Under the pieces are notes generated by a model. That model was not told where the DNA came from and made no database searches. It worked only from the letters and a program-made list of their open reading frames with translations. This document shows, in pieces, positions 1,270 through 33,032 of a stretch of DNA of 64,000 nucleotides; positions within the stretch are counted from its first letter, which is position 1, and each line of letters begins with the position of its first letter. The position numbers and the translations under genes are program-made. The DNA is from an uncultured Hyphomonas sp. (GTDB taxonomy: Bacteria; Pseudomonadota; Alphaproteobacteria; Caulobacterales; Hyphomonadaceae), in assembly GCA_964644385.1 (NCBI GenBank), contig CAZXVJ010000006.1:28142-92141 (forward strand). The letters are read 5' to 3'.

Positions 1270-3870
1270 CTAAGGCAGGCGCGCACATTGGCTTTGAGAT
1301 TGATACGCGTTGAACCGCGAAAGGTCTCCGCTGGATAAATAGTAGTCGGGGTTCGCCTCCACGCCCGCCCTGGTGAGCGCATCCACTTCAGCCAAAAGTG
1401 CACAAATTTCGCTGCGGCTGTCTTCCCTGAAAATCTCATCGCGGCGAACCATGATGAGCGCCTTTTGGAGCCGTAAGGCAATAGATTCATCCCTCACGAT
1501 CTCATTTTCTGGCTGAATATCCAGATAGGCATCTGGAATGGCGGTGGCGCGCGATATGCTTTCGATGGCTGCGTCCAATTCGAAAGACAGCCCCGCTTCG
1601 ACATAGGCTCTATTCTTATGCGTGGCATAAACCAATTGGAGATAGGAATAGGTGTTGTCATCGAAGGGCTTCAGCCGTTCAAGCAAAACCTCCGCCGTAT
1701 CCAAATGCTCTTTGAGCTCATTTGCGATCTTGAGGTTCTCCGCCATTCCGGGTTGTCGTTTCTGAGCCTCCAAAATAGCACGCCCGCCATCTGAGTAAGT
1801 TCCCAGACGTGTCTCAACATCTTGAAGGGATGGTCGCCAGTCCAGTCCCATCACCGTTGTCCCAATCATTGTCTCCAGTGCCCAAAAATAGGTGTATATG
1901 TCCTCCGGATTAGACGGGTTGTCCTCCATCCTGCTTTTTGCGGTTTGAAATCCCGTCTGCACCCACTCGCGTACCGTCTCATATTCTGACCTGTCTGAAA
2001 TCGGCACGGTATCATGTGGTGGATTCCACTTACTCGAAGAGATCGCGTTGCCGGCAAGGTACAGGAAAGACCAATGTGAAATGATGTGGTCGTTATTGGC
2101 CAAATCATCTGCATACAATGCCCTGACGTCTCGCTCGATCGCGATGATTTCATCATCTAACTCTGCGAAACCTTGAGCGTCTGATTTTGCGCCCCAAAGC
2201 TCGAAGCGAATATCCAATAACGCCGCTTTGATCTCGATATTGTCTGGATCATCCTGAAGCAGGTCTTCATAGATCGCGCGCGCCTGCTCTGCGGCTTCTG
2301 GCATTTGTGAGCGGTCATTGAAATGAAAACGATAGACGTAGGCGCGGTTGACCAACTCATCAGCAAACAATTTCCGAACCTGCGGGCTCGCGTCGGGTCT
2401 CCCGGCGAGATCCTTCAATATGTTTAGCGAAATCTCAAACTGTTTTAGGCCCTCCTCAGGGTCACCCAGATTTCGGCCGCCCGACTGGGTCAACAAGTCT
2501 CCCAGTTGTTTGCGGCCCCGTGCATGTTCCAGGTCTAGGCTCGAATCCGCTTTCGCAGCCTCGGCTATAATGTTCAAATAGCGCGAAGACGTTTCGCTAA
2601 CCTTCTGCTGCAATGGCAACGTTCCGGGCAACTTGCTGAGGTCCTCGCCAAGGTCATTAAGTAGGAAACTCGTCAACTCGCGGGTTTCGGCAAATCGCTG
2701 GTCAGCTTGAACCCTTGCCGTCTGCGCCCGCCCATACTGCACCAGCGTTACGGTCAGGGCGGCAACAAGACCAAGCAGCGCCGCGCTCGTCAGGCCCACG
2801 CCAACTTTGTGCCGCGACATGAACTTGCTCACAGCATATTTACGCCCACCATCCACAGCGCTTACAGCGCGCCCGTTTAGATAGTTCTGAACGTCCTCTA
2901 CTAAGCCGCTGACGCTTGTAAAACGGCGCTCAGGTGCCTCGGCGGATGCTTTTTGCATAATCGCGACCAGTTCACCGTCCTGATCATTCGGTTCAATGAG
3001 GGCTTCGAGAAGTTTGCCAAGCGAATACACATCCGACAACGTGTTCGCACGCGCGCCGACAGAACGCTCTGGCGCAGCAAACCCAGGTGTAAAGCTCAGA
3101 CTGGCCAGTGAACCCGATCCCGCCTTTGCCGGGGCCGCCTCATCGAGGGGTTTGGCGATCCCGAAATCAATCAGTTTCACAACACCCGACATATCCACCA
3201 AAACATTGGAGGGGGTGATATCCCGGTGAATGATCTGGTTTTGGTGCGCGTAGGCCACGGCCGAACACGCAGCGATGAACAGTTGAAGACGATCGTTTTT
3301 CGACAAACCGTTTTGGCTCGCCCATTTTGTGATGGGCGAGCCGTCAATAAACTCCATCACAATATAGGGCTCGCCAGTGTCTAACTCACCGCCATCATAC
3401 AGGCGGGCAATGTTAGGATGGCTAAGGCCAGCCAGTGTTTGGCGTTCAATCGCAAATCTCGCGACCAATTTCTCAGACAGTGCGCCCGGGCGAACCACCT
3501 TGATGGCAACCTGGTGATCAAAGTCTCCGCTCGCTCGTTCCCCGCGATACACAGCGCCCATCCCACCGCGACCAATGAGGTCAATTATCCTGTAGGCCCC
3601 AATTTTCTCAGGCACTTTCGTGTCATCCAATGCGTCGTTAAAGGCCCCGCCCGTTCGCAGTTCGACGCGCGCCTCATTATCTCTGGACAGGTAAGTTAGC
3701 GCCCGTTCTATAAGGGCGGCGTCGCCTCGTCCTTCAGCCTCGATCCAGGCGATACGATCATCGGAGGGCACATCCAACGATCGCTCAAACAGCTCCAGCG
3801 CCCGCGTTTCAAGACTATTTTTATCATCTGACATATCGTCCCCCGCCCTCAGGTAATCACATCGCGTCAC
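1270..3870 (-). CDS. Ser/Thr protein kinase of the ECF-sigma-associated type. N-terminal helix motif, Hanks kinase domain, one TM helix, then a ~470-aa extracytoplasmic helical repeat domain.
   Basis: VAIKVV (VAIK), HRDITPSNVLV, DFGIAKP and APE motifs. N-terminus ALELFERSLDVPSDDRIAWIEAEGRGDAALIERALTYL matches the conserved N-terminal segment of kinases encoded next to ECF sigma factors. TM at LTSAALLGLVAALTVTLV. An alternative start at MSDDKNS (about nt 3834) is possible. Confidence 0.85.
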   Translation of the reverse strand: MTRCDYLRAGDDMSDDKNSLETRALELFERSLDVPSDDRIAWIEAEGRGDAALIERALTYLSRDNEARVELRTGGAFNDALDDTKVPEKIGAYRIIDLIGRGGMGAVYRGERASGDFDHQVAIKVVRPGALSEKLVARFAIERQTLAGLSHPNIARLYDGGELDTGEPYIVMEFIDGSPITKWASQNGLSKNDRLQLFIAACSAVAYAHQNQIIHRDITPSNVLVDMSGVVKLIDFGIAKPLDEAAPAKAGSGSLASLSFTPGFAAPERSVGARANTLSDVYSLGKLLEALIEPNDQDGELVAIMQKASAEAPERRFTSVSGLVEDVQNYLNGRAVSAVDGGRKYAVSKFMSRHKVGVGLTSAALLGLVAALTVTLVQYGRAQTARVQADQRFAETRELTSFLLNDLGEDLSKLPGTLPLQQKVSETSSRYLNIIAEAAKADSSLDLEHARGRKQLGDLLTQSGGRNLGDPEEGLKQFEISLNILKDLAGRPDASPQVRKLFADELVNRAYVYRFHFNDRSQMPEAAEQARAIYEDLLQDDPDNIEIKAALLDIRFELWGAKSDAQGFAELDDEIIAIERDVRALYADDLANNDHIISHWSFLYLAGNAISSSKWNPPHDTVPISDRSEYETVREWVQTGFQTAKSRMEDNPSNPEDIYTYFWALETMIGTTVMGLDWRPSLQDVETRLGTYSDGGRAILEAQKRQPGMAENLKIANELKEHLDTAEVLLERLKPFDDNTYSYLQLVYATHKNRAYVEAGLSFELDAAIESISRATAIPDAYLDIQPENEIVRDESIALRLQKALIMVRRDEIFREDSRSEICALLAEVDALTRAGVEANPDYYLSSGDLSRFNAYQSQSQCARLP

Positions 3871-3966
3871 TGTATTAAAGGCGCAGACGTCTGCAATATC
3901 GGGTCAATAACTGAACGTTCTCAAACTCAAATTGACCCAAAGACAATCGCTCTCACGCCTATTCTA

Positions 3967-4719
3967 TTGTACGCCATTGTGGAATCGATCATGATCAAAC
4001 GTCCCAAGGCCCCTGACATGGCTCCTGTAATTTACGCTATCGGAGATGTTCATGGTGAAGCGCAGCGACTGCTTCAGTTGCATAGCTATATCTTTGAGCG
4101 CCATGAACAGATGCATGCAGACCGTCCTTTGCGCATGGTCCATCTCGGCGACTATGTTGACCGCGGCTCAAACAGCGCGGATGTCATCGACATCATAAGC
4201 GGGCTTGAAAACAGACAAGATATCTCATGCATCAATCTACTCGGAAACCACGAGGAAATGATGCTGAATGGCCTGACACGCGCCACAGCGACCGCTTATG
4301 ACAATTGGCTCATCAATGGCGGTAAAGCGACGATCGAAAGCTATAAAGCACGCGGAGAAGACTCCGTACCGAAGCGCCACATCAATTGGCTAAAAACCTT
4401 GTTGCCAATCCATATTGAAGACACGCCAAAGTTGATCTTCGTGCATGCAGGCATAAATCCATCGCTGTTTCCAAATGAATCTGACGCCACCTATCGTTGG
4501 ACGCGCTCGCCTCGCTTTTTCAACGTTTCCAATTGGTCCAATCCAGATCTCGACGGCTGGACGGTTGTGCATGGTCACACGCCGACAGATGACTTCTATC
4601 CCGAACACAGTTCGGCAAAGGCAGCGCGACTAAACATAGACACAGGCGCGGTATTTGGGGGACGGCTCACCGCAGCCATCTTTGTTCCTGGGGAAGACGT
4701 TCAGTTCATCTTTGCCTAA
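3967..4719 (+). CDS. PPP-family (metallophosphoesterase) Ser/Thr protein phosphatase, PrpA/PrpB / lambda-phosphatase-like.
   Basis: GDVHG, GDYVDRG and GNHE metallophosphoesterase motifs in canonical order. Divergent from the kinase and convergent with the ECF sigma gene. An alternative start at MIKRPK (nt 3991) is possible. Confidence 0.8.
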   Translation: MYAIVESIMIKRPKAPDMAPVIYAIGDVHGEAQRLLQLHSYIFERHEQMHADRPLRMVHLGDYVDRGSNSADVIDIISGLENRQDISCINLLGNHEEMMLNGLTRATATAYDNWLINGGKATIESYKARGEDSVPKRHINWLKTLLPIHIEDTPKLIFVHAGINPSLFPNESDATYRWTRSPRFFNVSNWSNPDLDGWTVVHGHTPTDDFYPEHSSAKAARLNIDTGAVFGGRLTAAIFVPGEDVQFIFA

Positions 4720-4749: not shown

Positions 4750-5340
4750 TTACACGGCGTCGTTTATCGCATCGAGTAACCACGCCCGCGCCACACGCCA
4801 TTGACGCTTCACCGTCGACTCAGATGTTCCGGTCACTTCGGCGACCTCTTCCATCGTCATGCCGCCAAAATACCTCAGCTCAACAATGCTGGCCTTCTCC
4901 GCGTCGATGGCTGCAAGACGTATCAGAGACTTTTCCAACACATCCATGTCCAACCGCTGCGAGCCCCCTTCGAAGCGCGTCACAAGCGTAACCTTGCGAT
5001 GGTGTCGCTTGTCGGTCTTCTTCTTGCGCGCATGATCAATCAACACCCGGCGCATTGCGCGCGCAGATAGCGCGAGGAAGTGGCTTTTGTCCGCCCATTC
5101 AATCTGATCCAGCTGAATTAAACGAAGCGCGGCCTCATTCACCAAATCTCCCGTAGTGAGAGAATTATTACTTTCTGCTCGCAGAAGCGCCGCGGAAACC
5201 TGCCTTAACTCCGAATACAACAGCTCAAACAACGCGTCGCGCGCAGCTGTTTCGCCGCCGCGCCAGCGCTGTAGCAGCGCATTGCTGTCTTCAGAATTTG
5301 TCACCATCGACCGTCTTCCCCCCACGCTAGTAAGCCGCAA
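4750..5340 (-). CDS. ECF-type RNA polymerase sigma factor (sigma-70 regions 2 and 4) of the Ser/Thr-kinase-associated group.
   Basis: LLQRWRGGETAARDALFELLYSEL (region 2), HFLALSARAMRRVLIDHAR, and VELRYFGGMTMEEVAEVTGTSESTVKRQWRVARAWL (region 4 HTH). Adjacent to a kinase carrying the matching N-terminal motif. A probable alternative start at MVTNSE (about nt 5307) exists. Confidence 0.85.
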   Translation of the reverse strand: MRLTSVGGRRSMVTNSEDSNALLQRWRGGETAARDALFELLYSELRQVSAALLRAESNNSLTTGDLVNEAALRLIQLDQIEWADKSHFLALSARAMRRVLIDHARKKKTDKRHHRKVTLVTRFEGGSQRLDMDVLEKSLIRLAAIDAEKASIVELRYFGGMTMEEVAEVTGTSESTVKRQWRVARAWLLDAINDAV

Positions 5341-5456
5341 CCACAGCGCTTTTGCAAGAAATCATGAGCTTGCGCGATTTATTTCAAATTCTCCTGACCC
5401 ATTACCCGGTCAAGCTGCGCCTCTAACCGTGACACCGAATTTTTTGGAGATACGAA

Positions 5457-6011
5457 ATGGAAGACGTCGTCAGTGCGATCCCACCCGAAGCGTGGCCCCT
5501 CATAGATATATTATTCAATGTCACGATGGCGGTGACAGGCATTTGGCTGGCATGGACAGTCTTTGTCATTTGGCGACGCAACTCATCGAATTTGACGTCC
5601 ATGAGCAGCGTCTCACCAAATCGAAAAGCAAAACCCGACTTTTTGTCCGTCGATGAAAAGGAACGGCGTGAAGCCATCAAACGCGGCGAAAAGTTTGAAA
5701 AAGACCTCGACACTCGTGAACGAGAAGACGCCAAAGCGCTCAAGAAGGCGGGACGGAAAAAGGAGACCAAAGCCGGTCGTATCGGCCGCATCGTCTCATT
5801 CGGAATGGCGTTATTTTCAATCGCCACGATGATCTCTGGAACGGTTTTTCAGGTCTCAATCATGGGTCGGTATTGGGAACAATATTCTGCCAGTGAGCGC
5901 CTTCTCTCCGTCATCCAGAACCACCCCATCGGCGTTTCGGTCACCGTGCTGGTCATTCTCTACAACGTCATCACTTTCATCACTAACTACACATCGGAAG
6001 GGAGTTCATAA
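5457..6011 (+). CDS. Hypothetical 3-TM membrane protein with a central charged (KR/E-rich) helix. First gene of the operon.
   Basis: GGAGA RBS 7 nt upstream of the ATG. Hydrophobic segments at about aa 14-38, 113-135 and 157-178. Its stop is 1 nt before the next start. Confidence 0.5.
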   Translation: MEDVVSAIPPEAWPLIDILFNVTMAVTGIWLAWTVFVIWRRNSSNLTSMSSVSPNRKAKPDFLSVDEKERREAIKRGEKFEKDLDTREREDAKALKKAGRKKETKAGRIGRIVSFGMALFSIATMISGTVFQVSIMGRYWEQYSASERLLSVIQNHPIGVSVTVLVILYNVITFITNYTSEGSS

Positions 6012-6012
6012 C

Positions 6013-7608
6013 ATGGCTTCTGAACCAGTCATTCTAAGCGACCCACGGATCATCGCCGAATTTTTGCGCCAAACAGAATTCCAGGGTTTTTTCGAAAAGC
6101 GCTTCGCCGTTCCCCCAGACTATGCCGCCCTACTCTTTAAAAACGGACAGCTGATTGATGCCTTCAAAGGCGGACACTTCTCAGTTGGCGGCTTGGTCGA
6201 CAAGCTCAAAGGCGTCATTGGCGGCTCCACTCATGTCTCAATGATGATCGCGGATCTGAAACCGTTTCAAGTGCAAACGATGATTCAAGGCCGCAGCAAA
6301 GACAATGTCGATATTGTGGGCGTTGCCACACTGGAACTGCAGGTCAATCCAGATAAGCCGTCGAACTTCTTGGGCATGATGCACGGCGTGGATCGCGCAC
6401 CGGGCGACGCAAACGAGTTGGGCCGCAAATCTCTGACAAAAGGTCAGATTCTTGCGCGCATTCGCCCTCACCTATCAGACCGCGTTTTTGAAGCCACGAT
6501 TGGCCGGATCGACGCAATTGATCTGCGCGGTGACGTTGGCCTGCAAGACAAATTGCAAGCTGACATGATGCAAGAGGTGGAACGGGTCGCCGGCGATCTT
6601 GGTCTCTTGGTTCGGGCGGCGTCTATCGAATGGGCGGAAAACGCTGAAGAAGCCGCGCATCAGGCCCGGGCTGACGCGTCCCGCCAGCAAGACAATATCG
6701 ATTTTGAGATCGAAATGGCAAGACGCTCAGCTGAGCGCGCTCAAGACGCTATGATCTACAACATCAACAGCGAAGTCGATATCGCCAAGCTTCAGAACGC
6801 CAGTGAAGACGAACTCAAACACATGGCGCTCAACAGCGAGATCACCTTCCTGGACGCCCGCGAAGACGCAAAACGTCGTCAGGAAATGGATGAGTTGGAT
6901 CACCAGATTGCCTTTCTTGAAAAAGAACGCCGAACAACGTTTCAGAACGCGATTGAAACCGCGGAAAACGAAACGGATCTCAAACAGATCCAGCAGAAGC
7001 AGCTCAAACTCGACACCGAGATGGATGCGATGCGCCAGTTGCATCTGCAAAAAATGCAGCAATCCGGCGCATACAGCGAAGCGGAAGTCACCGCAAAAAT
7101 CCAAAAGCAACAGCGTGAACACATCTCTGCCCTGCAAGACATTGAGTTACGTGCAGAAAAAGTGCGTTCCGAATTAAAGCGAATTGAACGCAAAGACTCC
7201 CAGGACTTTGAACTAAAAAAACTTGGCGTTCAGCAGTCGATGAGTTCGGAACAAATTCTGGCTGTTCAGGCGGGGCTATCGCCGGATGTCGCTGCCGTAC
7301 TGGCCGAGCGAGCCCGCGCCGATTCCGATGGCAATGAAACCACGATGAAACTGATGCGCGAAATGGTAGAGGCAGCAACCGCCAGCCAAATCCGCTCAGA
7401 GGCGCAGGCCCGCGAGATGTTTAAAATGGGCATGGATGGCACGGTCGGCGTCGCAGCAGGCGCAGGAGGGGGACGCGCAAGCGGAGCGGCTGGGTCATCC
7501 AATAACGACTCAGCCGCTCAATCCTCAGTCGACTGTCCAAAATGCAGCACCACAGCGGACGCAATGTCAAAATTTTGCGCCAAGTGCGGCCACAAGCTTC
7601 GGACCTGA
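6013..7608 (+). CDS. SPFH (band-7/flotillin-like) domain protein with a long coiled-coil and a C-terminal zinc ribbon.
   Basis: GGAAGGGAG RBS before the ATG at 6013. The six-frame ORF starts at 5893, but the internal Met 41 at 6013 is the supported start. SPFH core-like TMIQGRSKDNVDIVGVATLELQVN (compare stomatin ILTKD.V.V.VD.VVYYRV). About 250 aa of heptad-like E/K/Q/R-rich sequence follow. C-terminus is VDCPKCSTTADAMSKFCAKCGHKL (CxxC..CxxC). Confidence 0.6.
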   Translation: MASEPVILSDPRIIAEFLRQTEFQGFFEKRFAVPPDYAALLFKNGQLIDAFKGGHFSVGGLVDKLKGVIGGSTHVSMMIADLKPFQVQTMIQGRSKDNVDIVGVATLELQVNPDKPSNFLGMMHGVDRAPGDANELGRKSLTKGQILARIRPHLSDRVFEATIGRIDAIDLRGDVGLQDKLQADMMQEVERVAGDLGLLVRAASIEWAENAEEAAHQARADASRQQDNIDFEIEMARRSAERAQDAMIYNINSEVDIAKLQNASEDELKHMALNSEITFLDAREDAKRRQEMDELDHQIAFLEKERRTTFQNAIETAENETDLKQIQQKQLKLDTEMDAMRQLHLQKMQQSGAYSEAEVTAKIQKQQREHISALQDIELRAEKVRSELKRIERKDSQDFELKKLGVQQSMSSEQILAVQAGLSPDVAAVLAERARADSDGNETTMKLMREMVEAATASQIRSEAQAREMFKMGMDGTVGVAAGAGGGRASGAAGSSNNDSAAQSSVDCPKCSTTADAMSKFCAKCGHKLRT

Positions 7609-7612
7609 TCTG

Positions 7613-9187
7613 ATGTCATCATCACCTCTTGAAATCTGTTCGTCTTGCGGCGCCACTATACCCGAAAACGCACGCTTTTGCGTTGAATGCGGCATCACAC
7701 TGGGATCTGGTCCGGTCGATACGCCGACGATGCACACGGTCAGCGGTCTCGAAACCGTCTTGCCGGACGATCAGGGCCACGCGCTCGCCAATGCGTCGTC
7801 ATCTGTTCTCAGCCCAGGCGACGTCATCGCTGACAAGTTTGAGATCGAGCGCGTCATCGGCCAAGGCGGCATGGGCACAGTCTACAAAGCAAAGGAGATT
7901 CTATCCGGCCAAACGGCAGCATTGAAAGTCATCTCGCAAAAGTTTGTCGGCAGCGAAAAAGCCGTCAAACGCTTGATCGAAGAAGGCATGACCACGCGGG
8001 GCATTTCACACCCCAATGTGGTCCAGATCTTCGACATCGGTCTGCACGGCACCCAGCCCTACATTGCCATGGAGTATTTAGACGGGCGGCCACTGCATGT
8101 TTGGCGCGGTGAGAAGATGGCCAATGGTGAAGCGGTTCCCGTTCGCGTCGCCGGCCAGATTATCAAAGAGGTGCTCCACGGACTTCAAGCCGCTCATGAT
8201 GCAGGGGTTATCCACCGCGACCTGAAGCCTGAAAACATCATGCTGATGGATGAGCCGTCGCAATCCTCTGCAAAAATCAAAATCGTTGATTTCGGCATTG
8301 CGCTCGCCACCAAGACAGCCACAGCGTCTGGCACCGGAACTGGGCTCGGCACGCAGCTTTACATGGCGCCAGAGCAGATCCGAAACGCCAATGCAGCAAA
8401 CGCCTCAGCAGATCTCTACTCATTGTCGAAAATCTTCTACGAATTGATCGTTGGTGTGCTGCCAACAGGTCATTGGCAACCGCCATCAGGCGGGCGTTCA
8501 GATGTGCCACGCGGCATAGATATGCTGATCGAGAAAGGTCTATCCGCCAATCGAGACATGCGCCCACAAAGCGCTGCGGCGTATAAGCAAGCGCTTATCG
8601 CGGGCATGAACCATCAGATGCCGTTACCCAAGCAGGATACAGGCAAGAATTGGAAAACGCCCGTCCTGCTCGCGGGTGGCGCACTGGCGGTCATACTGGG
8701 CGCAGTGGTCATCAACGACGCTGGATCATCGCCCCATCAATCTGGTGAACTGCAGCGTGATCAAAACGACTCAACTTTCGAGTTTTCGCCACCCAATCCC
8801 GAACGCGTTGACGTATCGCCGACAGAGCCGGTCACGCGCGATGTGCAGATTGGCCCTGGCACAGAAACGCCTCAGCCGCGCTTTGCCTACTATAATGGCC
8901 GCTGGGCTGACCCCTTCGGCGGAGCCTATGACATCACCATAAATGACAATGGAAACTTATCAGGCAATGGATATTTGGGAGATGGCACAAGCGTCTCAAT
9001 TGCAGGCCAACTGAGCGGCAACAATCTATCTTATTCACTTGGCATGTTCGGTGAAGCGTTCGCTGAGGGGACAGCAACGAAGACAGACCAGTGTCACTTC
9101 AACTTTACGACCGCCAATTACTTGACCGGCGGCTATTCTAACGGTGTCTTTCACGTCAATCACCAACCTGGGCAACCGTGTCCATGA
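7613..9187 (+). CDS. Zinc-ribbon-containing Ser/Thr protein kinase with one TM helix and a ~140-aa periplasmic C-terminal domain.
   Basis: Internal Met 60 of ORF 7436..9187 sits 5 nt after the upstream stop. N-terminal CSSCGATIPENARFCVECG zinc ribbon. Kinase motifs GQGGMGTVYKA, ALKVI, HRDLKPENIML, DFGIA, APE. TM at VLLAGGALAVILGAVVI. Confidence 0.85.
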   Translation: MSSSPLEICSSCGATIPENARFCVECGITLGSGPVDTPTMHTVSGLETVLPDDQGHALANASSSVLSPGDVIADKFEIERVIGQGGMGTVYKAKEILSGQTAALKVISQKFVGSEKAVKRLIEEGMTTRGISHPNVVQIFDIGLHGTQPYIAMEYLDGRPLHVWRGEKMANGEAVPVRVAGQIIKEVLHGLQAAHDAGVIHRDLKPENIMLMDEPSQSSAKIKIVDFGIALATKTATASGTGTGLGTQLYMAPEQIRNANAANASADLYSLSKIFYELIVGVLPTGHWQPPSGGRSDVPRGIDMLIEKGLSANRDMRPQSAAAYKQALIAGMNHQMPLPKQDTGKNWKTPVLLAGGALAVILGAVVINDAGSSPHQSGELQRDQNDSTFEFSPPNPERVDVSPTEPVTRDVQIGPGTETPQPRFAYYNGRWADPFGGAYDITINDNGNLSGNGYLGDGTSVSIAGQLSGNNLSYSLGMFGEAFAEGTATKTDQCHFNFTTANYLTGGYSNGVFHVNHQPGQPCP

Positions 9188-10317
9188 GCGCCGTGTTGAC
9201 CCCTTCCCCAAGCGCCGTTTGTTGCAACCGATCTGCACTCGACTGTGACGCGGGCTTTTGTACCGATTGCGGAAAATCGCTGATCCGCTGCATGGCCTCG
9301 GCAGAGTGTGGGTCATTGCTGGATGACCAAGGCGTCTGCCAGATTTGCGTCAGACCAGAATTGGCTCTTGATGCGGGCGCGGCAGCAACGGTTCGAGAGG
9401 GCGGCAAACTCGCTCTACCGCTCACCATCAAAAACGCGTCCCCCGTCGGTCGCCCCCTTTTCATCACGGGGCTTTGGATGAAGGAAGACGATGGAGAGTT
9501 GCGGGAAGTTCCGCTTCCCTTTAAGCGCCTGGACTCCGGCGAAGCGTCGAATGTTGGCATCCGTACAGGTGTGCTAGAATATGCTGGCGTGCACCAGGTG
9601 GATCTCCGCATTGCCGTTGCCACGCGCTATCAGTGGCGCCAGGAAGAATACGTCTTCTCCAGCGCGATCATCTTCCCGGTCGAGACCAAAGACCCAGACG
9701 GCCCGGTCACGAATATTCATGTCGATGGCGACGCAGGCCCCGGCTTCACTGTCTACAACCCAACGCGCATTGAGAACGAGCGCGCAACCGGCAACAGCGC
9801 GCACATTACCCCCATTTCGCTCAATATCCGGCGCGCCGATCAGTCTGAACGCACCTTAAAAAAACGAGGCTACGAATCTGGCCTGAGCGTGCCCCGGACG
9901 GTGACCTTCGAGTGGCAAGGTTTTGAAGACGGCGACGCCCCCTTTGTCGGCCCAATCTTAAGACCATCAGGGCTGCTTTGCTTTGGCCGCAACGCCACAT
10001 CGTTGGAGACAGGTGCAAACGATGCGCGTCTGCTTGTCAGCGGCCCAGACGGAATCGACGAAGCGGCGTCCCTTGCCATTTCTCGCCAACATTTCACGCT
10101 CTACGTGGAAAGCGGTCGACTTATGTTGCGCGTCGACAGCCGCTACGGGCTGCGTGTCAATGATCGGTCTCTTCAGCGCACCGAAACAAGCCTCCTCCAA
10201 AGCGGGGACATCATCCGCCCTTTGAGAAAATCACCCGACGCGCTGGCCATTTCTGTGCAATTCGAAACCCAGCAAGACATCGTCACGCTGATTGTCATAC
10301 GAAAGCAATCGACATGA
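9184..10317 (+). CDS. Cys-rich/zinc-ribbon N-terminal protein with a C-terminal FHA (phosphothreonine-binding) domain.
   Basis: ATG 9184 overlaps the kinase stop (ATGA); GTG 9178 is an alternative start. N-terminus has 9 Cys in 60 aa (CDAGFCTDCG..CGSLLDDQGVCQIC). C-terminus GRN..11..LLVSGPDG..6..SRQHFTLYVESGRLMLRVDSRYGLRVNDRSL..LQSGDIIRPL fits the FHA signature (GR..SRxH..StNG-like..N..GD.I). Confidence 0.75.
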   Translation: MSAVLTPSPSAVCCNRSALDCDAGFCTDCGKSLIRCMASAECGSLLDDQGVCQICVRPELALDAGAAATVREGGKLALPLTIKNASPVGRPLFITGLWMKEDDGELREVPLPFKRLDSGEASNVGIRTGVLEYAGVHQVDLRIAVATRYQWRQEEYVFSSAIIFPVETKDPDGPVTNIHVDGDAGPGFTVYNPTRIENERATGNSAHITPISLNIRRADQSERTLKKRGYESGLSVPRTVTFEWQGFEDGDAPFVGPILRPSGLLCFGRNATSLETGANDARLLVSGPDGIDEAASLAISRQHFTLYVESGRLMLRVDSRYGLRVNDRSLQRTETSLLQSGDIIRPLRKSPDALAISVQFETQQDIVTLIVIRKQST

Positions 10318-10844
10318 CACATGCATCGACATTGATCCTGCGCATAGCGCCAGTCGTCTTCATCGGCTGTCTCGCCTTAGCGGCTTGCAAACCGAGCAAC
10401 GTGCTCCGCCCTGACCAGTCACCCACACCGTCATTGACACAAAAAGAGCCAGCGGCACCGATCGCCAAACCAGCACCCCGTATTGGTTTTCCTTCCGGCG
10501 TTTGGGTCGAAGGAGATGACACAGTCTGGTCTGTTGCTGTCGACGGGAACCGCGTCCTTGCCAAAGGAGAATGCGGCCTCGGACAAGGCCTCACGCTTAC
10601 CGGAACAATAAAGAACGTCGCGCTGACCTATACCGTCAACACAGATGACCAAACCGGCATCGGAAAAGGACAAGCCGTCCTCGTCGGCGATGACCACGCT
10701 TACTTCGATGTCAGCGGCGGCATGCAAACCCACGGGCTGTTTCACTTCAATCACACCGATTTGAAAACAGCCTGCAGCCCAAAATTTACGCGCCGCGGAC
10801 CGATTGATATTCGCCCAGCGCCCAACACACGCCCCGGAGAGTGA
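10314..10844 (+). CDS. Predicted lipoprotein of unknown function.
   Basis: Signal peptide plus lipobox LALAAC. ATG overlaps the upstream stop (ATGA). No recognisable catalytic motif. Gly/Thr-rich beta-like composition. Confidence 0.55.
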   Translation: MTHASTLILRIAPVVFIGCLALAACKPSNVLRPDQSPTPSLTQKEPAAPIAKPAPRIGFPSGVWVEGDDTVWSVAVDGNRVLAKGECGLGQGLTLTGTIKNVALTYTVNTDDQTGIGKGQAVLVGDDHAYFDVSGGMQTHGLFHFNHTDLKTACSPKFTRRGPIDIRPAPNTRPGE

Positions 10845-10846
10845 GC

Positions 10847-11911
10847 ATGACAAACGCCCAAACCCGATACCGCATTGATGGCTATCTTCGTACCGATGAC
10901 GACCAACCCATCGCAACGCTCGAAATGACCAGCAAACCTAGCTTATCTGATTGGATAGATCTCAGGCCGCTCTGCTCTCCTGTTGAAGATCAGGGGCATG
11001 TCGGCTCATGCACCGCGAACGCCATTGTCGGTGCACTCGAATATCTGCAAATCGCCAGCGGCGGTCCATCTACGGATCTCTCGAGGTTGTTCGTCTACTA
11101 CAATGCCCGCAGGTTCTCAGATCGAGAGGGGGATGACTGCGGCGCCTCTATGGCGCACGCAATGGCATCGCTCCTCGCATTCGGGGCGTGCCCAGAATCG
11201 GTTTGGCCCTATGATGAGGCACGTTGGAGTAAAAAGCCGCCCGACGGCTGCTATCAGAGCGCCGTGCCTTTTGCAGGCCTGCACTATGCCAGCGTCGCCC
11301 CCAATGATGAGCGGAAATACGTCCTGGCTTCAGGCCTACCCATTATCTTTGGTATGGGTGTGCCGGAACATCTCTTGATGAACGTTGGCGCACAAACCGG
11401 CTACATGCCCGCCCCGGCAGACGGCAATTGGGAGCCCGCATCCAGCGGGCATGCAATGCTGATTGTTGGGTACAGCGACGCGAACAATGCATGGCTGGTT
11501 AGAAATTCATGGGGAACCGGTTTCGGTGAAGGCGGTCACGTTTGGATCGACTATGCGGTTATGGATCACTATGCGATCGGTGCGCAGGATTTTTGGACGG
11601 TCGGTCCGCTCGATCGGAACAAATTCTTCCGTCTTGCCGGTCCCAGTTCGCAATCTGTACAGCAACACGCCGTCCAGCACGCCACGCCGGCGACCCGCAA
11701 CTTTATGGATCAAGTCCGCAAACATCTTCGCCACGACCTCGAAACGCATCTCGACGCGACCCGTCAGGGCCTGCGCGATCGCCTTCGCGGTCCCGGAGTG
11801 GGCGGCGGATACGACAAAGGCCCCGGCGCGGGGGGCGGCTATGACAAAGGACCGGGCGTTGGCGGCGGATATGACCGCGGCCCCGGCGCAGGAGGTGGAT
11901 ACGATGACTAA
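10847..11911 (+). CDS. Papain-like cysteine peptidase (C1 family), copy 1. No signal peptide or prodomain, with 4x GPGxGGGYD(K/R) C-terminal repeats.
   Basis: DWIDLRPLCSPVEDQGHVGSCTANAI (papain mature N-terminus pattern DWR..VTPVKNQG.CGSCWAF; Q and C spaced 6 apart). HAMLIVGY (catalytic His). NSWGTGFGEGGHVWI (Asn plus Trp, compare NSWGTGWGENGYIRI). GGAGAG RBS 6 nt upstream of ATG 10847; GTG 10841 is an alternative start. Confidence 0.8.
   Translation: MTNAQTRYRIDGYLRTDDDQPIATLEMTSKPSLSDWIDLRPLCSPVEDQGHVGSCTANAIVGALEYLQIASGGPSTDLSRLFVYYNARRFSDREGDDCGASMAHAMASLLAFGACPESVWPYDEARWSKKPPDGCYQSAVPFAGLHYASVAPNDERKYVLASGLPIIFGMGVPEHLLMNVGAQTGYMPAPADGNWEPASSGHAMLIVGYSDANNAWLVRNSWGTGFGEGGHVWIDYAVMDHYAIGAQDFWTVGPLDRNKFFRLAGPSSQSVQQHAVQHATPATRNFMDQVRKHLRHDLETHLDATRQGLRDRLRGPGVGGGYDKGPGAGGGYDKGPGVGGGYDRGPGAGGGYDD
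11789..11908 (+). repeat. In-frame tandem repeat of four 30-nt units encoding GPG(V/A)GGGYD(K/R/D).
   Basis: Units ggtcccggagtgggcggcggatacgacaaa, ggccccggcgcggggggcggctatgacaaa, ggaccgggcgttggcggcggatatgaccgc, ggccccggcgcaggaggtggatacgatgac read directly from the sequence. Confidence 0.85.
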
Positions 11912-12911
11912 ACTAATTGACGGCGTCCTATTGGGCGGCTGGATTCCAGACGAGGTTGACGAGGCGATTCCAACACTCAAAACCGTAGCCGACATTCAAA
12001 CCCCGAACCTGGTCGACCTGAGGCCAAAATGCTCCCCGGTTGAAAATCAAGCGGCTGTCGGCTCCTGCGTCGCCAATGCTATCGTCGGCGCTCTCGAATA
12101 TCATCAGATCCGAAATGGCTCGACCATGAAAGATCTCTCCCGTCTCTTCGTTTATTACAATGCGCGCCGCCTCGGCGAGCGTATTGGCGAGGCAGGCACC
12201 ACCATTCAGCGGGCGATGGCCGCCATCCTCGGATGGGGCGCCTGCCCAGCTTCGATGTGGCCCTACCAAACCGCCATGGTAGATGAGCGTCCCAGCGAGG
12301 CTTGCTACAAAGCGGCGCAAATGTTCAAAGGCGTCCAGATTGCCCAAACCAGCTGGGGCGCTGGATGCCGTGAAGCGCTCGCCAACGGTTTGCCGGTTGC
12401 GTTCGGCATGAATGTCGCCATGCAAGACTTCAACAGCAATGGTCCGGCTGGCCAAACCGGCATGCTCAAGCCCCCATTGGACGGCAACTGGGCAGACCCA
12501 AGCGGCGGGCATGCCATGCTGATCGTGGGATATGACGACGCGCGCCACGCGTGGCTCGTGCGAAATTCATGGGGAGAGGCCTGGGGAGAAGGCGGGCACG
12601 TCTGGATCGACTATGATTATCTCAACCACTACATCGCATATGGACGCCGCGCCGCGCCATACGTGATTGGCCAAATTCAAGATATTCGAGCCTTTGAATT
12701 GAGCGGTGCCACAACAGAACAAGTTGTGGCGCAGGCTCTCTCGCGCGCGCCAGCGCAGGTTCAGAGCGAAATGGGCGCGCTCCGCCAACATCTTGCTTCA
12801 GACCTGGATTCAAGCCTCTCAGACGCCCGCAAAAGCATCCGCGATAGGCTACGTGGGCCGGGCGCAGGTGGCGGCTATGATAAAGGCCCTGGCGCGGGCG
12901 GAGGATATTAA
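11904..12911 (+). CDS. Papain-like cysteine peptidase (C1 family), copy 2, paralog of the upstream gene. 2x GPGAGGGYD repeats at the C-terminus.
   Basis: Internal Met 148 of ORF 11463..12911. Start overlaps the upstream stop by 8 nt. LVDLRPKCSPVENQAAVGSCVANAI, HAMLIVGY and NSWGEAWGEGGHVWIDY keep all catalytic residues. Tail motif LRDRLRGPGAGGGYDKGPGAGGGY is shared with copy 1. Confidence 0.8.
   Translation: MTKLIDGVLLGGWIPDEVDEAIPTLKTVADIQTPNLVDLRPKCSPVENQAAVGSCVANAIVGALEYHQIRNGSTMKDLSRLFVYYNARRLGERIGEAGTTIQRAMAAILGWGACPASMWPYQTAMVDERPSEACYKAAQMFKGVQIAQTSWGAGCREALANGLPVAFGMNVAMQDFNSNGPAGQTGMLKPPLDGNWADPSGGHAMLIVGYDDARHAWLVRNSWGEAWGEGGHVWIDYDYLNHYIAYGRRAAPYVIGQIQDIRAFELSGATTEQVVAQALSRAPAQVQSEMGALRQHLASDLDSSLSDARKSIRDRLRGPGAGGGYDKGPGAGGGY
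12854..12908 (+). repeat. In-frame tandem repeat of 1.8 units of the same 30-nt GPGAGGGYDK motif at the end of the second peptidase gene.
   Basis: gggccgggcgcaggtggcggctatgataaa then ggccctggcgcgggcggaggatat, followed directly by the stop codon. Confidence 0.85.
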
Positions 12912-12912
12912 A

Positions 12913-13404
12913 ATGCCAAATCCCATTCTCGCCGCGAACTCAGAACGCCAAAATCGGCTGCGACGCAACGGACCGCTCCGTAAAGCCATGACCGTTTTCC
13001 CCTTATTGGTTCCGCCAATCGGAATTTACATGATGATGGCGCTGTTTTCGGGAGATGGCGGCATTCAAGGCTCGCTCGATACAACGGTCTTCAATCTTTC
13101 AATGCTGTCGGGCGCACGCTGGGAATTGCGCGCCGGAGATCTATTGTCCCTTTTCGCCCTTCTCATGCTCTCCATCGAGATTGTGAAATCGACTAACACA
13201 AAATCTGGCGCCATCGCCAATCATGCCGCCTCAATGGGGCTTTTGCTCTTCTGCTTGATCGGATTTCTGGTGTTCCGCAGTTTCGCGACATCTGTGTTCT
13301 TTCTGATCACGATGATGTGCCTTTTAGATGTGCTGGCCGGTGTTATGGTCACAATCGTCTCCGCGCGCCGCGATTTCGGTGTTGGAGACGGGTTTGGTGG
13401 TTAG
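12913..13404 (+). CDS. Hypothetical small membrane protein with about 4 TM helices. Last gene of the operon.
   Basis: Internal Met 70 of ORF 12706..13404, 1 nt after the upstream stop. Hydrophobic segments VFPLLVPPIGIYMMMALF, LLSLFALLMLSI, MGLLLFCLIGFLVF, VFFLITMMCLLDVLAGVMV. Confidence 0.5.
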   Translation: MPNPILAANSERQNRLRRNGPLRKAMTVFPLLVPPIGIYMMMALFSGDGGIQGSLDTTVFNLSMLSGARWELRAGDLLSLFALLMLSIEIVKSTNTKSGAIANHAASMGLLLFCLIGFLVFRSFATSVFFLITMMCLLDVLAGVMVTIVSARRDFGVGDGFGG

Positions 13405-13633: not shown

Positions 13634-14281
13634 ATGTTTGCGGTCATTAAGACAGGCGGTAAGCAGTATAAGGTTGCCGAAGGCGATCAAATCACTGTTG
13701 AGAAACTGGACGCCGAAGAAGGCAAGAGCATCACGTTTGATGATGTGCTTATGGTTGGATCTGGCGCAGACGTTACGATTGGCGCGCCTCTGGTGGCCGG
13801 TGCTAGTGTGACAGGCACGGTCGCCCAGCAGACCCGCGGCTCAAAAATCCTGATCCGCAAAAAGCGACAGCGTTCAACATACCGCCGCACCAAAGGCCAC
13901 CGTCAGCATCTGACCGTTGTCGATATTACAGGCATCTCTGCCAAGGGCGGCAAAAAAGCAGCCCCCGCCAAGAAAGCAGAAGCGGCTCCAAAAGCCGCTG
14001 AAGCGCCCAAGCCCGCCGCCAAGAAGGCTGACGTCAGCGCAATGGATGCGCGCGGACGCCTCGCTGGCCCGCAAGGCGAAGCAGATGATCTGAAGCTGAT
14101 CAAAGGCGTCGGCAAAGTGCTGGAAGGCAAGTTGAACGAAGCTGGCATCTACCACTTCTGGCAGGTCGCAGCGCTGAAAGGCGAACAGATCACTGAGCTT
14201 GAAGAAGAGATGAGCTTTCCAGGCCGCATCGAGCGAGATGACTGGGTAAGCCAAGCCGAAGAATTCGCAAAAGACGCGTAA
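13634..14281 (+). CDS. rplU: 50S ribosomal protein L21 with a ~110-aa C-terminal extension (Ala/Lys-rich linker plus an HhH-like module).
   Basis: [44 protein letters not shown] is canonical L21. The C-terminal extension is read directly from the ORF. Confidence 0.9.
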
Positions 14282-14680: not shown

Positions 14681-14706
14681 TCCCCAAATTGTTGAGGACT
14701 GGGCCA

Positions 14707-17418
<2,712 letters not shown>

Positions 17419-20390: not shown

Positions 20391-20467
<77 letters not shown>

Positions 20468-20904: not shown

Positions 20905-20981
20905 GGCCCCTTAGCTCAGCTGGATAGAGCACCCGCCTTCTAAGCGGACGGTCGCAGGTTCGAATCCTGCAGGGGTCGCCA
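20905..20981 (+). tRNA. tRNA-Arg (anticodon TCT).
   Basis: GGCCCCT/AGGGGTC acceptor stem. TAGCTCAGCTGGATAGAGC D-arm. Anticodon loop cTTCTAa. GGTTCGAATCC T-loop. CCA encoded. Coordinates +-1. Confidence 0.85.
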
Positions 20982-32959: not shown

Positions 32960-33032
32960 AAAATACGATGGGAATCGAACCCATTACCATAGAGTGTGAG
33001 TCTATTGCTCTACCCGAATGAGCTACGTAGCT
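32960..33032 (-). tRNA. Probable tRNA-Val (anticodon CAC). The acceptor stem has one mismatch as read, and CCA is not encoded.
   Basis: On the minus strand: D-arm GCTC-ATTCGGGTA-GAGC. Anticodon arm ATAGA-CTCACAC-TCTAT (U33, anticodon CAC, A37). T-arm ATGGG-TTCGATT-CCCAT. Acceptor AGCTACG/CGTATTT pairs 6 of 7 (C3 vs T70). Could be +-1 in indexing. Confidence 0.55.

Follow-up and report, generated by a model that had tools for sequence, protein, structure and literature searches.

A Hyphomonas gene cluster combining an SPFH-type protein, a Ser/Thr kinase, an FHA protein and papain-like peptidases, with a conserved five-gene core

What could bring an SPFH-type scaffold, a kinase with an FHA partner and papain-like cysteine peptidases together in a single operon? 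The question is raised by eight forward-strand open reading frames (ORFs), numbered here G1 to G8, at positions 5457-13404 of a 64,000-nucleotide stretch of DNA from an uncultured Hyphomonas sp. (assembly GCA_964644385.1, contig CAZXVJ010000006.1), hereafter the window. SPFH proteins are universal, their roles in bacteria are debated, and the best-understood cases pair with a protease. A first-pass annotation, made by a model from the sequence alone, had read the eight genes as one translationally coupled operon that fits no described system, and had suggested a phospho-regulated proteolysis or stress/defence module anchored in a membrane microdomain. Our analysis leads to the conclusion that the cluster joins known parts in a combination for which we found no description, and that five of its genes form a conserved core.

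Conservation and organization of the cluster

The core was defined by comparing loci. A species-level scan (one genome per GTDB species) found 119 related loci, 80 of which were kept, and ORFs called in all 80 were matched to 11 window proteins. Loci from 65 different species had at least 5 kb of downstream sequence and were evaluable for the five-gene core, which consists of the protein with three transmembrane (TM) spans G1, the SPFH-coiled-coil-Zn-ribbon protein G2, the Zn-ribbon-immunoglobulin (Ig)-FHA protein G4, the Zn-ribbon kinase G3 and a xylellain-type C1A peptidase. The FHA protein, the Zn-ribbon kinase and the C1 peptidase were all present on the same strand in 64 of these 65 loci, and G1 lies directly upstream of G2 in 77/80. 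Among Alphaproteobacteria, the core is found in Hyphomonadaceae, Sphingomonadales, Acetobacteraceae, Limibaculum, metagenome-assembled genomes labelled Rhizobium, and Parvularculaceae; its hosts elsewhere are five Pirellulaceae (Planctomycetota), four Gemmatimonadaceae and one gammaproteobacterium. No further gene was conserved with the core across phyla, as only shadow ORFs on other frames turned up.

Synteny of the full set, which had been put forward as a check on the operon, was thus recovered for five genes and not for the eight-gene unit, the other three being restricted to sub-lineages. Of the 65 evaluable loci, 12 have the lipoprotein G5 and 12 a second peptidase, while a homolog of the four-TM protein G8 is present in 39/80 loci at variable positions; these three genes are lineage accessories outside the conserved unit. 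The order of kinase and FHA genes was likewise described correctly for the window, where the kinase precedes the FHA gene, but this arrangement is shared only with its two nearest relatives: the usual order is FHA gene then kinase gene (62 loci vs 3). The difference would fit a duplication of the kinase gene with later reciprocal loss. In the closest relative of the window (locus L003, 3909-7857), the FHA gene is flanked by a kinase gene on either side. The kinase copy that is kept is the upstream one in the window (kinase and FHA genes at 7613-10317) and the downstream one in the 62 other loci.

The family is small, with 113 clusters (50% identity) at E≤1e-3 and 32 at 1e-30 among 1.84 billion representatives, and no copies of the cluster were found in plasmid and phage collections. 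The chromosomal neighbourhood varies among related loci, close relatives included. The earlier statement that no described system accounts for these genes agrees with our searches. In PADLOC-DB v2 the kinase alone gave matches, to many unrelated kinase models, and the other seven proteins had none at E≤0.1; NCBIfam returned generic kinase similarity only; and a description of an SPFH-kinase-FHA-papain cluster was not found in the literature. Source databases label the proteins "hypothetical", "zinc ribbon domain-containing" or "FHA domain-containing". The closest homologs of the window proteins come from Hyphomonadaceae of the Henriciella/Hyphomonas kind.

Within the window, direct reading of the sequence reproduced the eight ORFs and all of the junctions on which the operon had been proposed, each of them being an overlap or a gap of 1-4 nt. 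The TAA of G1 (6009-6011) is followed by the ATG of G2 at 6013, and the TGA of G2, ending at 7608, by the ATG of G3 at 7613. ATGA overlaps join G3 to G4 (9184-9187) and G4 to G5 (10314-10317). The TGA of G5 ends at 10844, and G6 starts at GTG 10841 or ATG 10847. G6 and G7 overlap by 8 nt (ATG 11904; TAA ending at 11911), and the ATG of G8 at 12913 follows the TAA of G7, which ends at 12911. Translational coupling would be possible at such junctions. On the forward strand inside the operon, a consensus scan detected no sigma-70-like promoter, and the terminator-like hairpins numbered three, all weak.

Predicted properties of the encoded proteins

The SPFH assignment of G2 (6013-7608, 531 aa) carries much of the argument and had a mixed outcome. 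Pfam Band_7 (PF01145) and Band_7_1 (PF13421) matched neither G2 nor 22 of its homologs at E≤1, and a few G2 homologs bear precomputed PF01145 matches in the database table. Against PDB sequences, sequence and profile searches matched the C-terminal Zn ribbon alone. The call was sustained instead by fold and by distant relatives. The AlphaFold2 (AF2) model of G2 has a predicted local distance difference test score (pLDDT) of 62.7, with the N-terminal 80 residues below 50 and the core (residues 85-210) mostly at 65-76; it shows a beta-beta-alpha-alpha-beta core and then about 270 residues of long helices. In a Foldseek search of the PDB, the top 36 matches (E≤1e-3) were all SPFH proteins (prohibitin, flotillin, HflK/C, stomatin, QmcA) or the vault shoulder domain, and the stomatin SPFH domain 8gn9 was superposed on the model with a TM-score of 0.75 and a root-mean-square deviation of 3.4 Å. 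Moreover, phmmer with the G2 N-terminal domain against the 1.84 billion representatives retrieved distant relatives at 1e-8 to 1e-5, several of which match Band_7 at 36.7, 41.5 and 28.9 bits, above its gathering cut-off. The layout of SPFH domain, coiled coil and Zn ribbon (SPFH-CC-ZnR) is seen in most of the relatives tested. We accept G2 as an SPFH protein because of this fold match together with the transitive homology to Band_7-positive relatives. Its C-terminal C4 Zn ribbon has four invariant Cys and scores below the cut-off of the Pfam Zn-ribbon models, and hydropathy gives no TM span in G2, which would be the scaffold of the system.

Some distant metagenomic genes for SPFH-CC-ZnR proteins (locus L086, 2216-3499; locus L088, 4044-6469) are followed by genes for Zn-ribbon proteins. 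In these neighbours an N-terminal Zn ribbon (MKCxxCG...CPxCG) is combined with low-complexity repeats and with TM spans at the C-terminal end. A gene for a G3-like kinase precedes one distant SPFH-CC-ZnR gene; the contigs are short. The distant loci may belong to a broader class of SPFH/Zn-ribbon modules whose outputs differ.

The upstream neighbour of G2, G1 (5457-6011, 184 aa), has three hydrophobic spans by hydropathy and a charged cytoplasmic loop. In this loop, which follows the first TM span, the motifs RRxASNLT and PDFLxVDxKAR are near-invariant, and a juxtamembrane Thr, Thr47, is present in 77/79 sequences, often with Pro directly after it. G1 has no Pfam family match and lacks a soluble C-terminal OB domain; NfeD (PF01957) was absent at E≤0.1 for both G1 and G8, which upholds the earlier view that the operon is not a stomatin-NfeD pair. 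We propose that G1 is the membrane anchor for G2.

The phospho-signalling pair of the core was recovered by Pfam as it had been called. The kinase G3 (7613-9187, 524 aa; Pkinase 6e-44) begins with a Zn ribbon (Zn_Ribbon_1, 1e-6, above cut-off), has the VAIK-type Lys, the HRD and the DFG motifs and a Thr-rich activation loop (ATKTATASGTGTGLGT), and continues past one TM span (residues 347-371) into a periplasmic domain of about 120 aa with two Cys. G4 (9184-10317, 377 aa) comprises two N-terminal Zn ribbons with eight invariant Cys in the alignment, an Ig-like beta-sandwich and a C-terminal FHA domain (PF00498, 3e-7). All 30 aligned sequences have G268, R269, S300 and R301 in the FHA domain, and the His located two positions past the SR pair is largely conserved. 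The AF2 model of G4 (pLDDT 84; predicted template modelling score 0.82) has Rad53 FHA1 as its top Foldseek match, and with its predicted binding loops intact G4 is a likely phosphothreonine reader. The middle domain of G4 was also considered as a chagasin-type inhibitor of C1 peptidases and rejected, since it lacks the chagasin loop motifs and its fold resembles generic Ig-like domains (ApaG, macroglobulin, TRAP). A short ribbon, C-x2-C...FC-x2-CG, is common to G2 (C-terminal), G3 (N-terminal) and G4 (N-terminal). The presence of Zn-ribbon genes beside distant SPFH-CC-ZnR genes as well is a weak hint that the ribbon may be a shared assembly handle.

The next gene encodes G5 (10314-10844, 176 aa), an accessory lipoprotein, as first proposed, with the lipobox LAAC. 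It is paralogous to the periplasmic domain of G3 (blastp against G3 residues 393-517, nucleotides 8789-9163: E 9e-9, 25% identity), and both have the same two Cys and the end motif G-x-F-H-x-N-H. No Pfam family matches this common domain, which is apparently a small extracytoplasmic sensor domain of an undescribed kind.

Two xylellain-type C1A cysteine peptidases follow, both recognized as Peptidase_C1 (PF00112) in line with the first reading: the core peptidase G6 (10847-11911, 354 aa, 1e-13) and G7 (11904-12911, 335 aa, 1e-15), a lineage-specific duplicate with 48% identity to G6 (blastp 5e-107). The catalytic Gln, Cys, His and Asn are kept in 87-88 of 88 cluster peptidases, and the closest solved structure to G7 is xylellain (3ois_A, 1.9e-30 over residues 12-242). 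Short bacterial peptidases of this type are reported to be rare in Alphaproteobacteria (PMC10380794). G6 and G7 have no signal peptide, Tat motif, hydrophobic leader or TM span. The peptidases, already thought to be cytoplasmic, are placed in the cytoplasm together with G2 and G4 because none of these proteins has a hydrophobic span.

At their C-terminus the cluster peptidases have a basic amphipathic helix, LxxLRxxLRxxLxxxLxxAKxxFRxRLRG, the G6 version of which ends RDRLRG. Beyond the helix lie decapeptide repeats, GPG(A/V)GGGYD(K/R), four in G6 (11790-11911) and two in G7 (12850-12911). Henriciella and Hyphomonas orthologs carry one to six copies (GPGAGGGY(D/N)(K/R)), and those of other lineages none. 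One possibility is that the repeats serve as low-complexity tails for self-association. An identity as RTX repeats of type I secretion was rejected, the period being 10 rather than 9 and the repeats lineage-restricted. The short pro-region of the cluster peptidases (L003-L082; G7 residues 10-16) contains a motif L-D-G-C-L-F-E, with Gly in 87/88 and Cys in 67/88 sequences; the window peptidases lack this Cys, having Tyr in G6 and Trp in G7. The motif may be a regulatory or active-site-blocking element. The last gene encodes the accessory membrane protein G8 (12913-13404, 163 aa), with about four TM spans by hydropathy, a conserved C-terminal ARRDFG and no Pfam family match; the membrane spans first attributed to G1 and G8 thus both stand.

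The divergent sigma factor and a candidate regulon

Divergently from the operon lies the gene of a sigma factor of the extracytoplasmic function (ECF) type (4750-5340, reverse strand; Sigma70_ECF PF07638 2e-35, Sigma70_r4_2 1e-8), which the first-pass annotation had noted, with good reason, as kinase-associated. Its sigma2.2 region reads SLTTGDLVNEA in place of the acidic DxxD of other ECFs, and the second Thr of this stretch, Thr63, is kept in 44 of 53 orthologs, with Ser in its place in 5. The ECF43 group has a phospho-acceptor Thr (consensus QTTA) at sigma2.2 instead of DxxD, and its hallmark is co-occurrence with a gene for a Hanks-type kinase (PMC13147305). By domains, kinase co-occurrence and this Thr, and not by phylogenetic placement, the window protein is probably an ECF43-type sigma factor. 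The kinase concerned, here called bigK (1270-3870, reverse strand; Pkinase 3e-33), is an 866-aa transmembrane Hanks-type Ser/Thr kinase with one TM span (residues 355-380, hydropathy) and an extracytoplasmic region of about 490 aa. Homologs of the sigma factor and bigK are found together in about 51/80 loci, their genes mostly overlapping. A PPP-family (calcineurin-like) phosphoesterase (3967-4719, forward strand; Metallophos 4e-15), with GDVHG, GDYVDRG and GNHE motifs, is a probable Ser/Thr phosphatase and has a homolog in 16/80 loci.

These genes are linked by a promoter-like motif. An alignment of the intergenic region between the sigma gene and G1 from 42 loci shows a conserved TGA(A/C)CC, a spacer and (G)CGCCT(C), pointing to G1. 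In the window, TGA[AC]CC-N15-18-CGCCT occurs 3 times vs 0.37 expected from shuffled sequence of the same 64 kb, and all three matches are at this locus. One, TGACCCATTACCCGGTCAAGCTGCGCCT (5395-5422, forward strand), ends 35 nt upstream of the G1 start codon and is the probable operon promoter; the second, TGACCCAAAGACAATCGCTCTCACGCCT (3933-3960, forward strand), lies directly upstream of the phosphatase gene, and the third, TGACCCGATATTGCAGACGTCTGCGCCT (3879-3906, reverse strand), directly upstream of bigK. The latter two form a compact divergent pair (3879-3960), two copies of TGACCC-N16-CGCCT back to back on opposite strands and 26 bp apart. The starts of the longest ORFs (GTG 3870 for bigK, TTG 3967 for the phosphatase) are too near these motifs, so that the real starts are probably ATG 3834 and ATG 3991 or 4018, respectively.

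The same motif was counted 59 times in 1.41 Mb of related loci, vs about 8 expected, and 47 of the 59 lie just upstream, and on the same strand, of G1 (36), G8 (9), the phosphatase gene (1) or a relocated FHA gene (1). Relocated G8 and FHA genes thus bring their own copy of the motif, and the phosphatase homolog of locus L004 has the same upstream motif. We conclude from these motif positions that, in Alphaproteobacteria, the operon, G8, the phosphatase and bigK form a predicted regulon under an ECF-type promoter; from adjacency and motif type, we infer that the adjacent sigma factor reads it. The extent of the system is therefore larger than first described: the operon stands as proposed, and in this lineage it is joined by the sigma factor, the 866-aa kinase, the phosphatase, which had gone unmentioned, and one promoter motif.

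The genes flanking the locus encode a uridine-kinase-like protein, rplU, rpmA, a GNAT acetyltransferase, obg, proB and an AMP-ligase. The first of the ribosomal genes, rplU, begins 230 nt past the operon end; its ORF (13634-14281) encodes 215 aa, of which residues 1-101 only are the L21 domain, with a C-terminal extension of about 110 residues. The GNAT gene (14689-15258) is placed between rpmA and obg. The longest obg ORF (TTG 14988, to 16322) overlaps it by 270 nt, so that the true obg start is probably at about 15255. A stable insertion site of the cluster near rplU-obg-proB was considered and found unsupported, proB being nearby in four Hyphomonas loci only. An Rfam search of the whole window at the gathering threshold matched three tRNA genes only (20391-20464, 20905-20978 and 32960-33032), with no riboswitch or small RNA families near the operon.

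Proposed mechanism, alternatives and related systems

Taken together, these features might describe an envelope-stress-induced, SPFH-scaffolded and phospho-gated proteolysis module at the inner membrane, with the ECF43 pair as its switch in this lineage. We give this reading a probability of about 45%. Under this scheme, bigK would sense an extracytoplasmic cue and phosphorylate the sigma factor at the conserved sigma2.2 Thr, by analogy with PknT-EcfP and PknS-EcfK, and the activated sigma factor would transcribe the operon, bigK and phosphatase genes from TGA(A/C)CC-N15-18-CGCCT promoters. G1 would hold the soluble G2 on the cytoplasmic side of the membrane, and there G2 would oligomerise into an SPFH ring or cage; this step is proposed because G2 has an SPFH fold and lacks a TM span, and because of the strict adjacency of G1 and G2 and the analogy with SamG/H-SamI. 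G3 might read a periplasmic signal through its ectodomain and then phosphorylate a Thr, either in its own activation loop or Thr47 of G1, while G5, as a copy of this ectodomain, might serve as co-receptor or decoy. The FHA domain of G4 would bind the phosphothreonine made by G3, and the Zn ribbons would hold G2, G3 and G4 together. A peptidase docked by its basic C-terminal helix could then be released or activated and cut a membrane-proximal substrate, perhaps G2, before the PPP phosphatase resets the phospho-signals. Candidate docking elements suggested by their conservation are Thr47 and the PDFL loop of G1, the C-terminal helix of the peptidase and the FCxxCG-type ribbon of G2, G3 and G4.

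Several points weigh against this proposal. Function, substrate, signal, phosphosite and all protein-protein contacts are inferred, and the SPFH call for G2 combines a medium-confidence model with transitive homology, Pfam Band_7 giving no match. Both the sigma factor and the motif are missing from the loci of Pirellulaceae and Gemmatimonadaceae; since the ECF link is confined to Alphaproteobacteria, "envelope stress" may describe the regulation of one lineage and not the core function. No copy of the motif was found on the sigma gene's own strand. Finally, the patchy spread across phyla and the non-conserved chromosomal position would fit a conflict system too.

Such a system, in which the kinase and FHA protein sense infection and free the peptidases onto host or phage proteins, with the SPFH protein restraining them until then, would act in anti-phage defence or abortive infection. 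Besides the small size of the family, its patchiness across distant phyla and a neighbourhood that differs even between close relatives, it could draw on the good scores of the kinase against the PADLOC kinase models PD-T4-6 and mad6, but these reflect generic Hanks-kinase similarity and the other seven proteins have no match. Transfer of xylellain-type C1A peptidases into phages and giant viruses has been reported (PMC10380794). Plasmid and phage copies of the cluster were not found, and the inspected flanks consist of housekeeping and metabolic genes with no defence islands. Moreover, most sampled Hyphomonas and Henriciella species have the system, which looks more like a lineage trait than a set of accessory genes, and the Hyphomonadaceae operon is probably controlled by an ECF43 sigma factor, a class so far tied to responses to envelope insults. 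Defence is thus quite improbable in our view. Of the two options first offered, membrane-microdomain, phospho-regulated proteolysis stays the best reading, at the level of a proposal, and the defence alternative remained without positive support.

It is also conceivable, if rather unlikely, that G2 itself is the effector in membrane remodelling or repair of the PspA/SamGHI type, with the kinase, FHA protein and peptidase tuning its assembly or disassembly; the peptidase may, for example, trim the G2 C-terminus as the NfeD protease does stomatin. Indeed, cleavage of the stomatin partner by the STOPP/NfeD protease is a precedent on the side of this explanation, as is the operon's position under an envelope-type ECF sigma factor. 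The layout of G2, without a TM span, with a long coiled coil and a Zn ribbon, and with a small membrane protein upstream, recalls SamG/H-SamI, and archaeal SPFH-CC-ZnR proteins have been linked to ESCRT loci (PMC10936438). A PspA/ESCRT-III-like or NfeD gene is, however, neither in the window locus nor conserved at related loci, and the peptidase, whose catalytic set is intact in every ortholog and which is duplicated in several lineages, would seem to be an output rather than a maturation factor. This explanation overlaps heavily with the proteolysis module favoured here and differs from it mainly in which protein is the effector.

Export of the peptidases as effectors of virulence, predation or nutrient acquisition, the remaining genes being a non-classical export or regulation apparatus, is very hard to credit. 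The Gly/Tyr-rich repeats (GPGAGGGYD) and the C-terminal helix could be export signals, and xylellain has been discussed as a pathogenicity-related enzyme; but the repeats have a 10-residue period, not the 9-residue period of RTX, and are absent outside Henriciella/Hyphomonas, the peptidases carry no signal peptide, Tat motif or TM span, and none of the 80 loci has a secretion-system gene within or beside the cluster.

Returning to regulated proteolysis at the inner membrane, a more specific version, of which we remain doubtful, is that the five-gene core represents a type of bacterial machine not recognised before, in which an SPFH cage on the cytoplasmic side of the inner membrane sequesters the papain-like protease, and that phosphothreonine signalling by the kinase and FHA protein, through Zn-ribbon adaptors, opens the cage or frees the protease. 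If true, prokaryotes would have a counterpart to regulated, compartmentalised cysteine-protease activation, and the cluster would contain the first SPFH-protease pair under Hanks-kinase control. The cluster might therefore serve as a compact and genetically tractable SPFH case, with scaffold, tether, cysteine protease and phosphothreonine switch co-inherited across phyla. It also gives short bacterial papain-family peptidases a defined genetic context, and provides a candidate regulon and promoter motif for an alphaproteobacterial ECF43 sigma/kinase pair.

Overall, the cluster would act as an SPFH-protease pair joined to a kinase/FHA/phosphatase switch like that of type VI secretion, placed in this lineage under an ECF43 sigma/kinase pair, yet it belongs to none of these systems, as it has no NfeD, FtsH or PspA and its G2 does not match Pfam Band_7. 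Among known systems, the solved enzyme xylellain (PDB 3OIS) resembles G6 and G7 in its short N-terminal extension and in having neither a classical long propeptide nor a signal peptide, whereas G6 and G7 add the basic C-terminal helix (RxRLRG) and the Gly/Tyr decapeptide repeats and sit within a conserved five-gene cluster; the comparison covers the enzymes and not the gene context of xylellain. The type VI secretion (T6SS) pathway PpkA-PppA-Fha likewise encodes a transmembrane Hanks kinase, an FHA protein and a phosphatase together to gate a membrane-associated machine. Here, by contrast, the phosphatase is of PPP type and not PP2C, and the FHA protein has Zn ribbons and an Ig-like domain. 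T6SS core genes were neither in the examined flanks nor conserved at related loci, the rest of the 64-kb window being unscanned, in agreement with the earlier statement that the operon is not a T6SS module of this kind. The ECF43 pairs EcfP-PknT of V. parahaemolyticus and EcfK-PknS of X. citri have in common with the window a PF07638 sigma factor, a transmembrane Hanks kinase and the sigma2.2 Thr. Their targets are polymyxin resistance or T6SS, while here the target would be the SPFH-kinase-FHA-peptidase operon; a PPP phosphatase in the regulon and a link limited to the alphaproteobacterial versions of the cluster are further differences.

In the PspA-SamGHI (YdjGHI) module of B. subtilis, the membrane proteins SamG/H recruit the cytosolic SPFH protein SamI, with a link to envelope-stress signalling. 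The cluster shares with it a soluble SPFH protein and a small membrane protein encoded upstream, G2 and SamI being compared by description and not by sequence. It has no PspA/ESCRT-III gene, and the Bacillus module, as described, has no kinase, FHA protein or peptidase. SPFH assemblies are well known to partner proteases, as in HflK/C-FtsH, prohibitin-mAAA and stomatin-NfeD/STOPP. The SPFH members of these pairs and of QmcA-YbbJ are the top fold matches of G2, and the partnerships have, like the cluster, an SPFH domain with a long helical extension, a small membrane partner and a protease. Unlike those SPFH proteins, G2 lacks a TM span or hairpin and has a Zn ribbon at its C-terminal end, and its partner G1, which has no Pfam match, is not the NfeD of the stomatin pair. 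The protease of the cluster is a cytoplasmic papain-family enzyme instead of an AAA+ or ClpP-type serine protease, and a kinase and an FHA protein are obligatory components.

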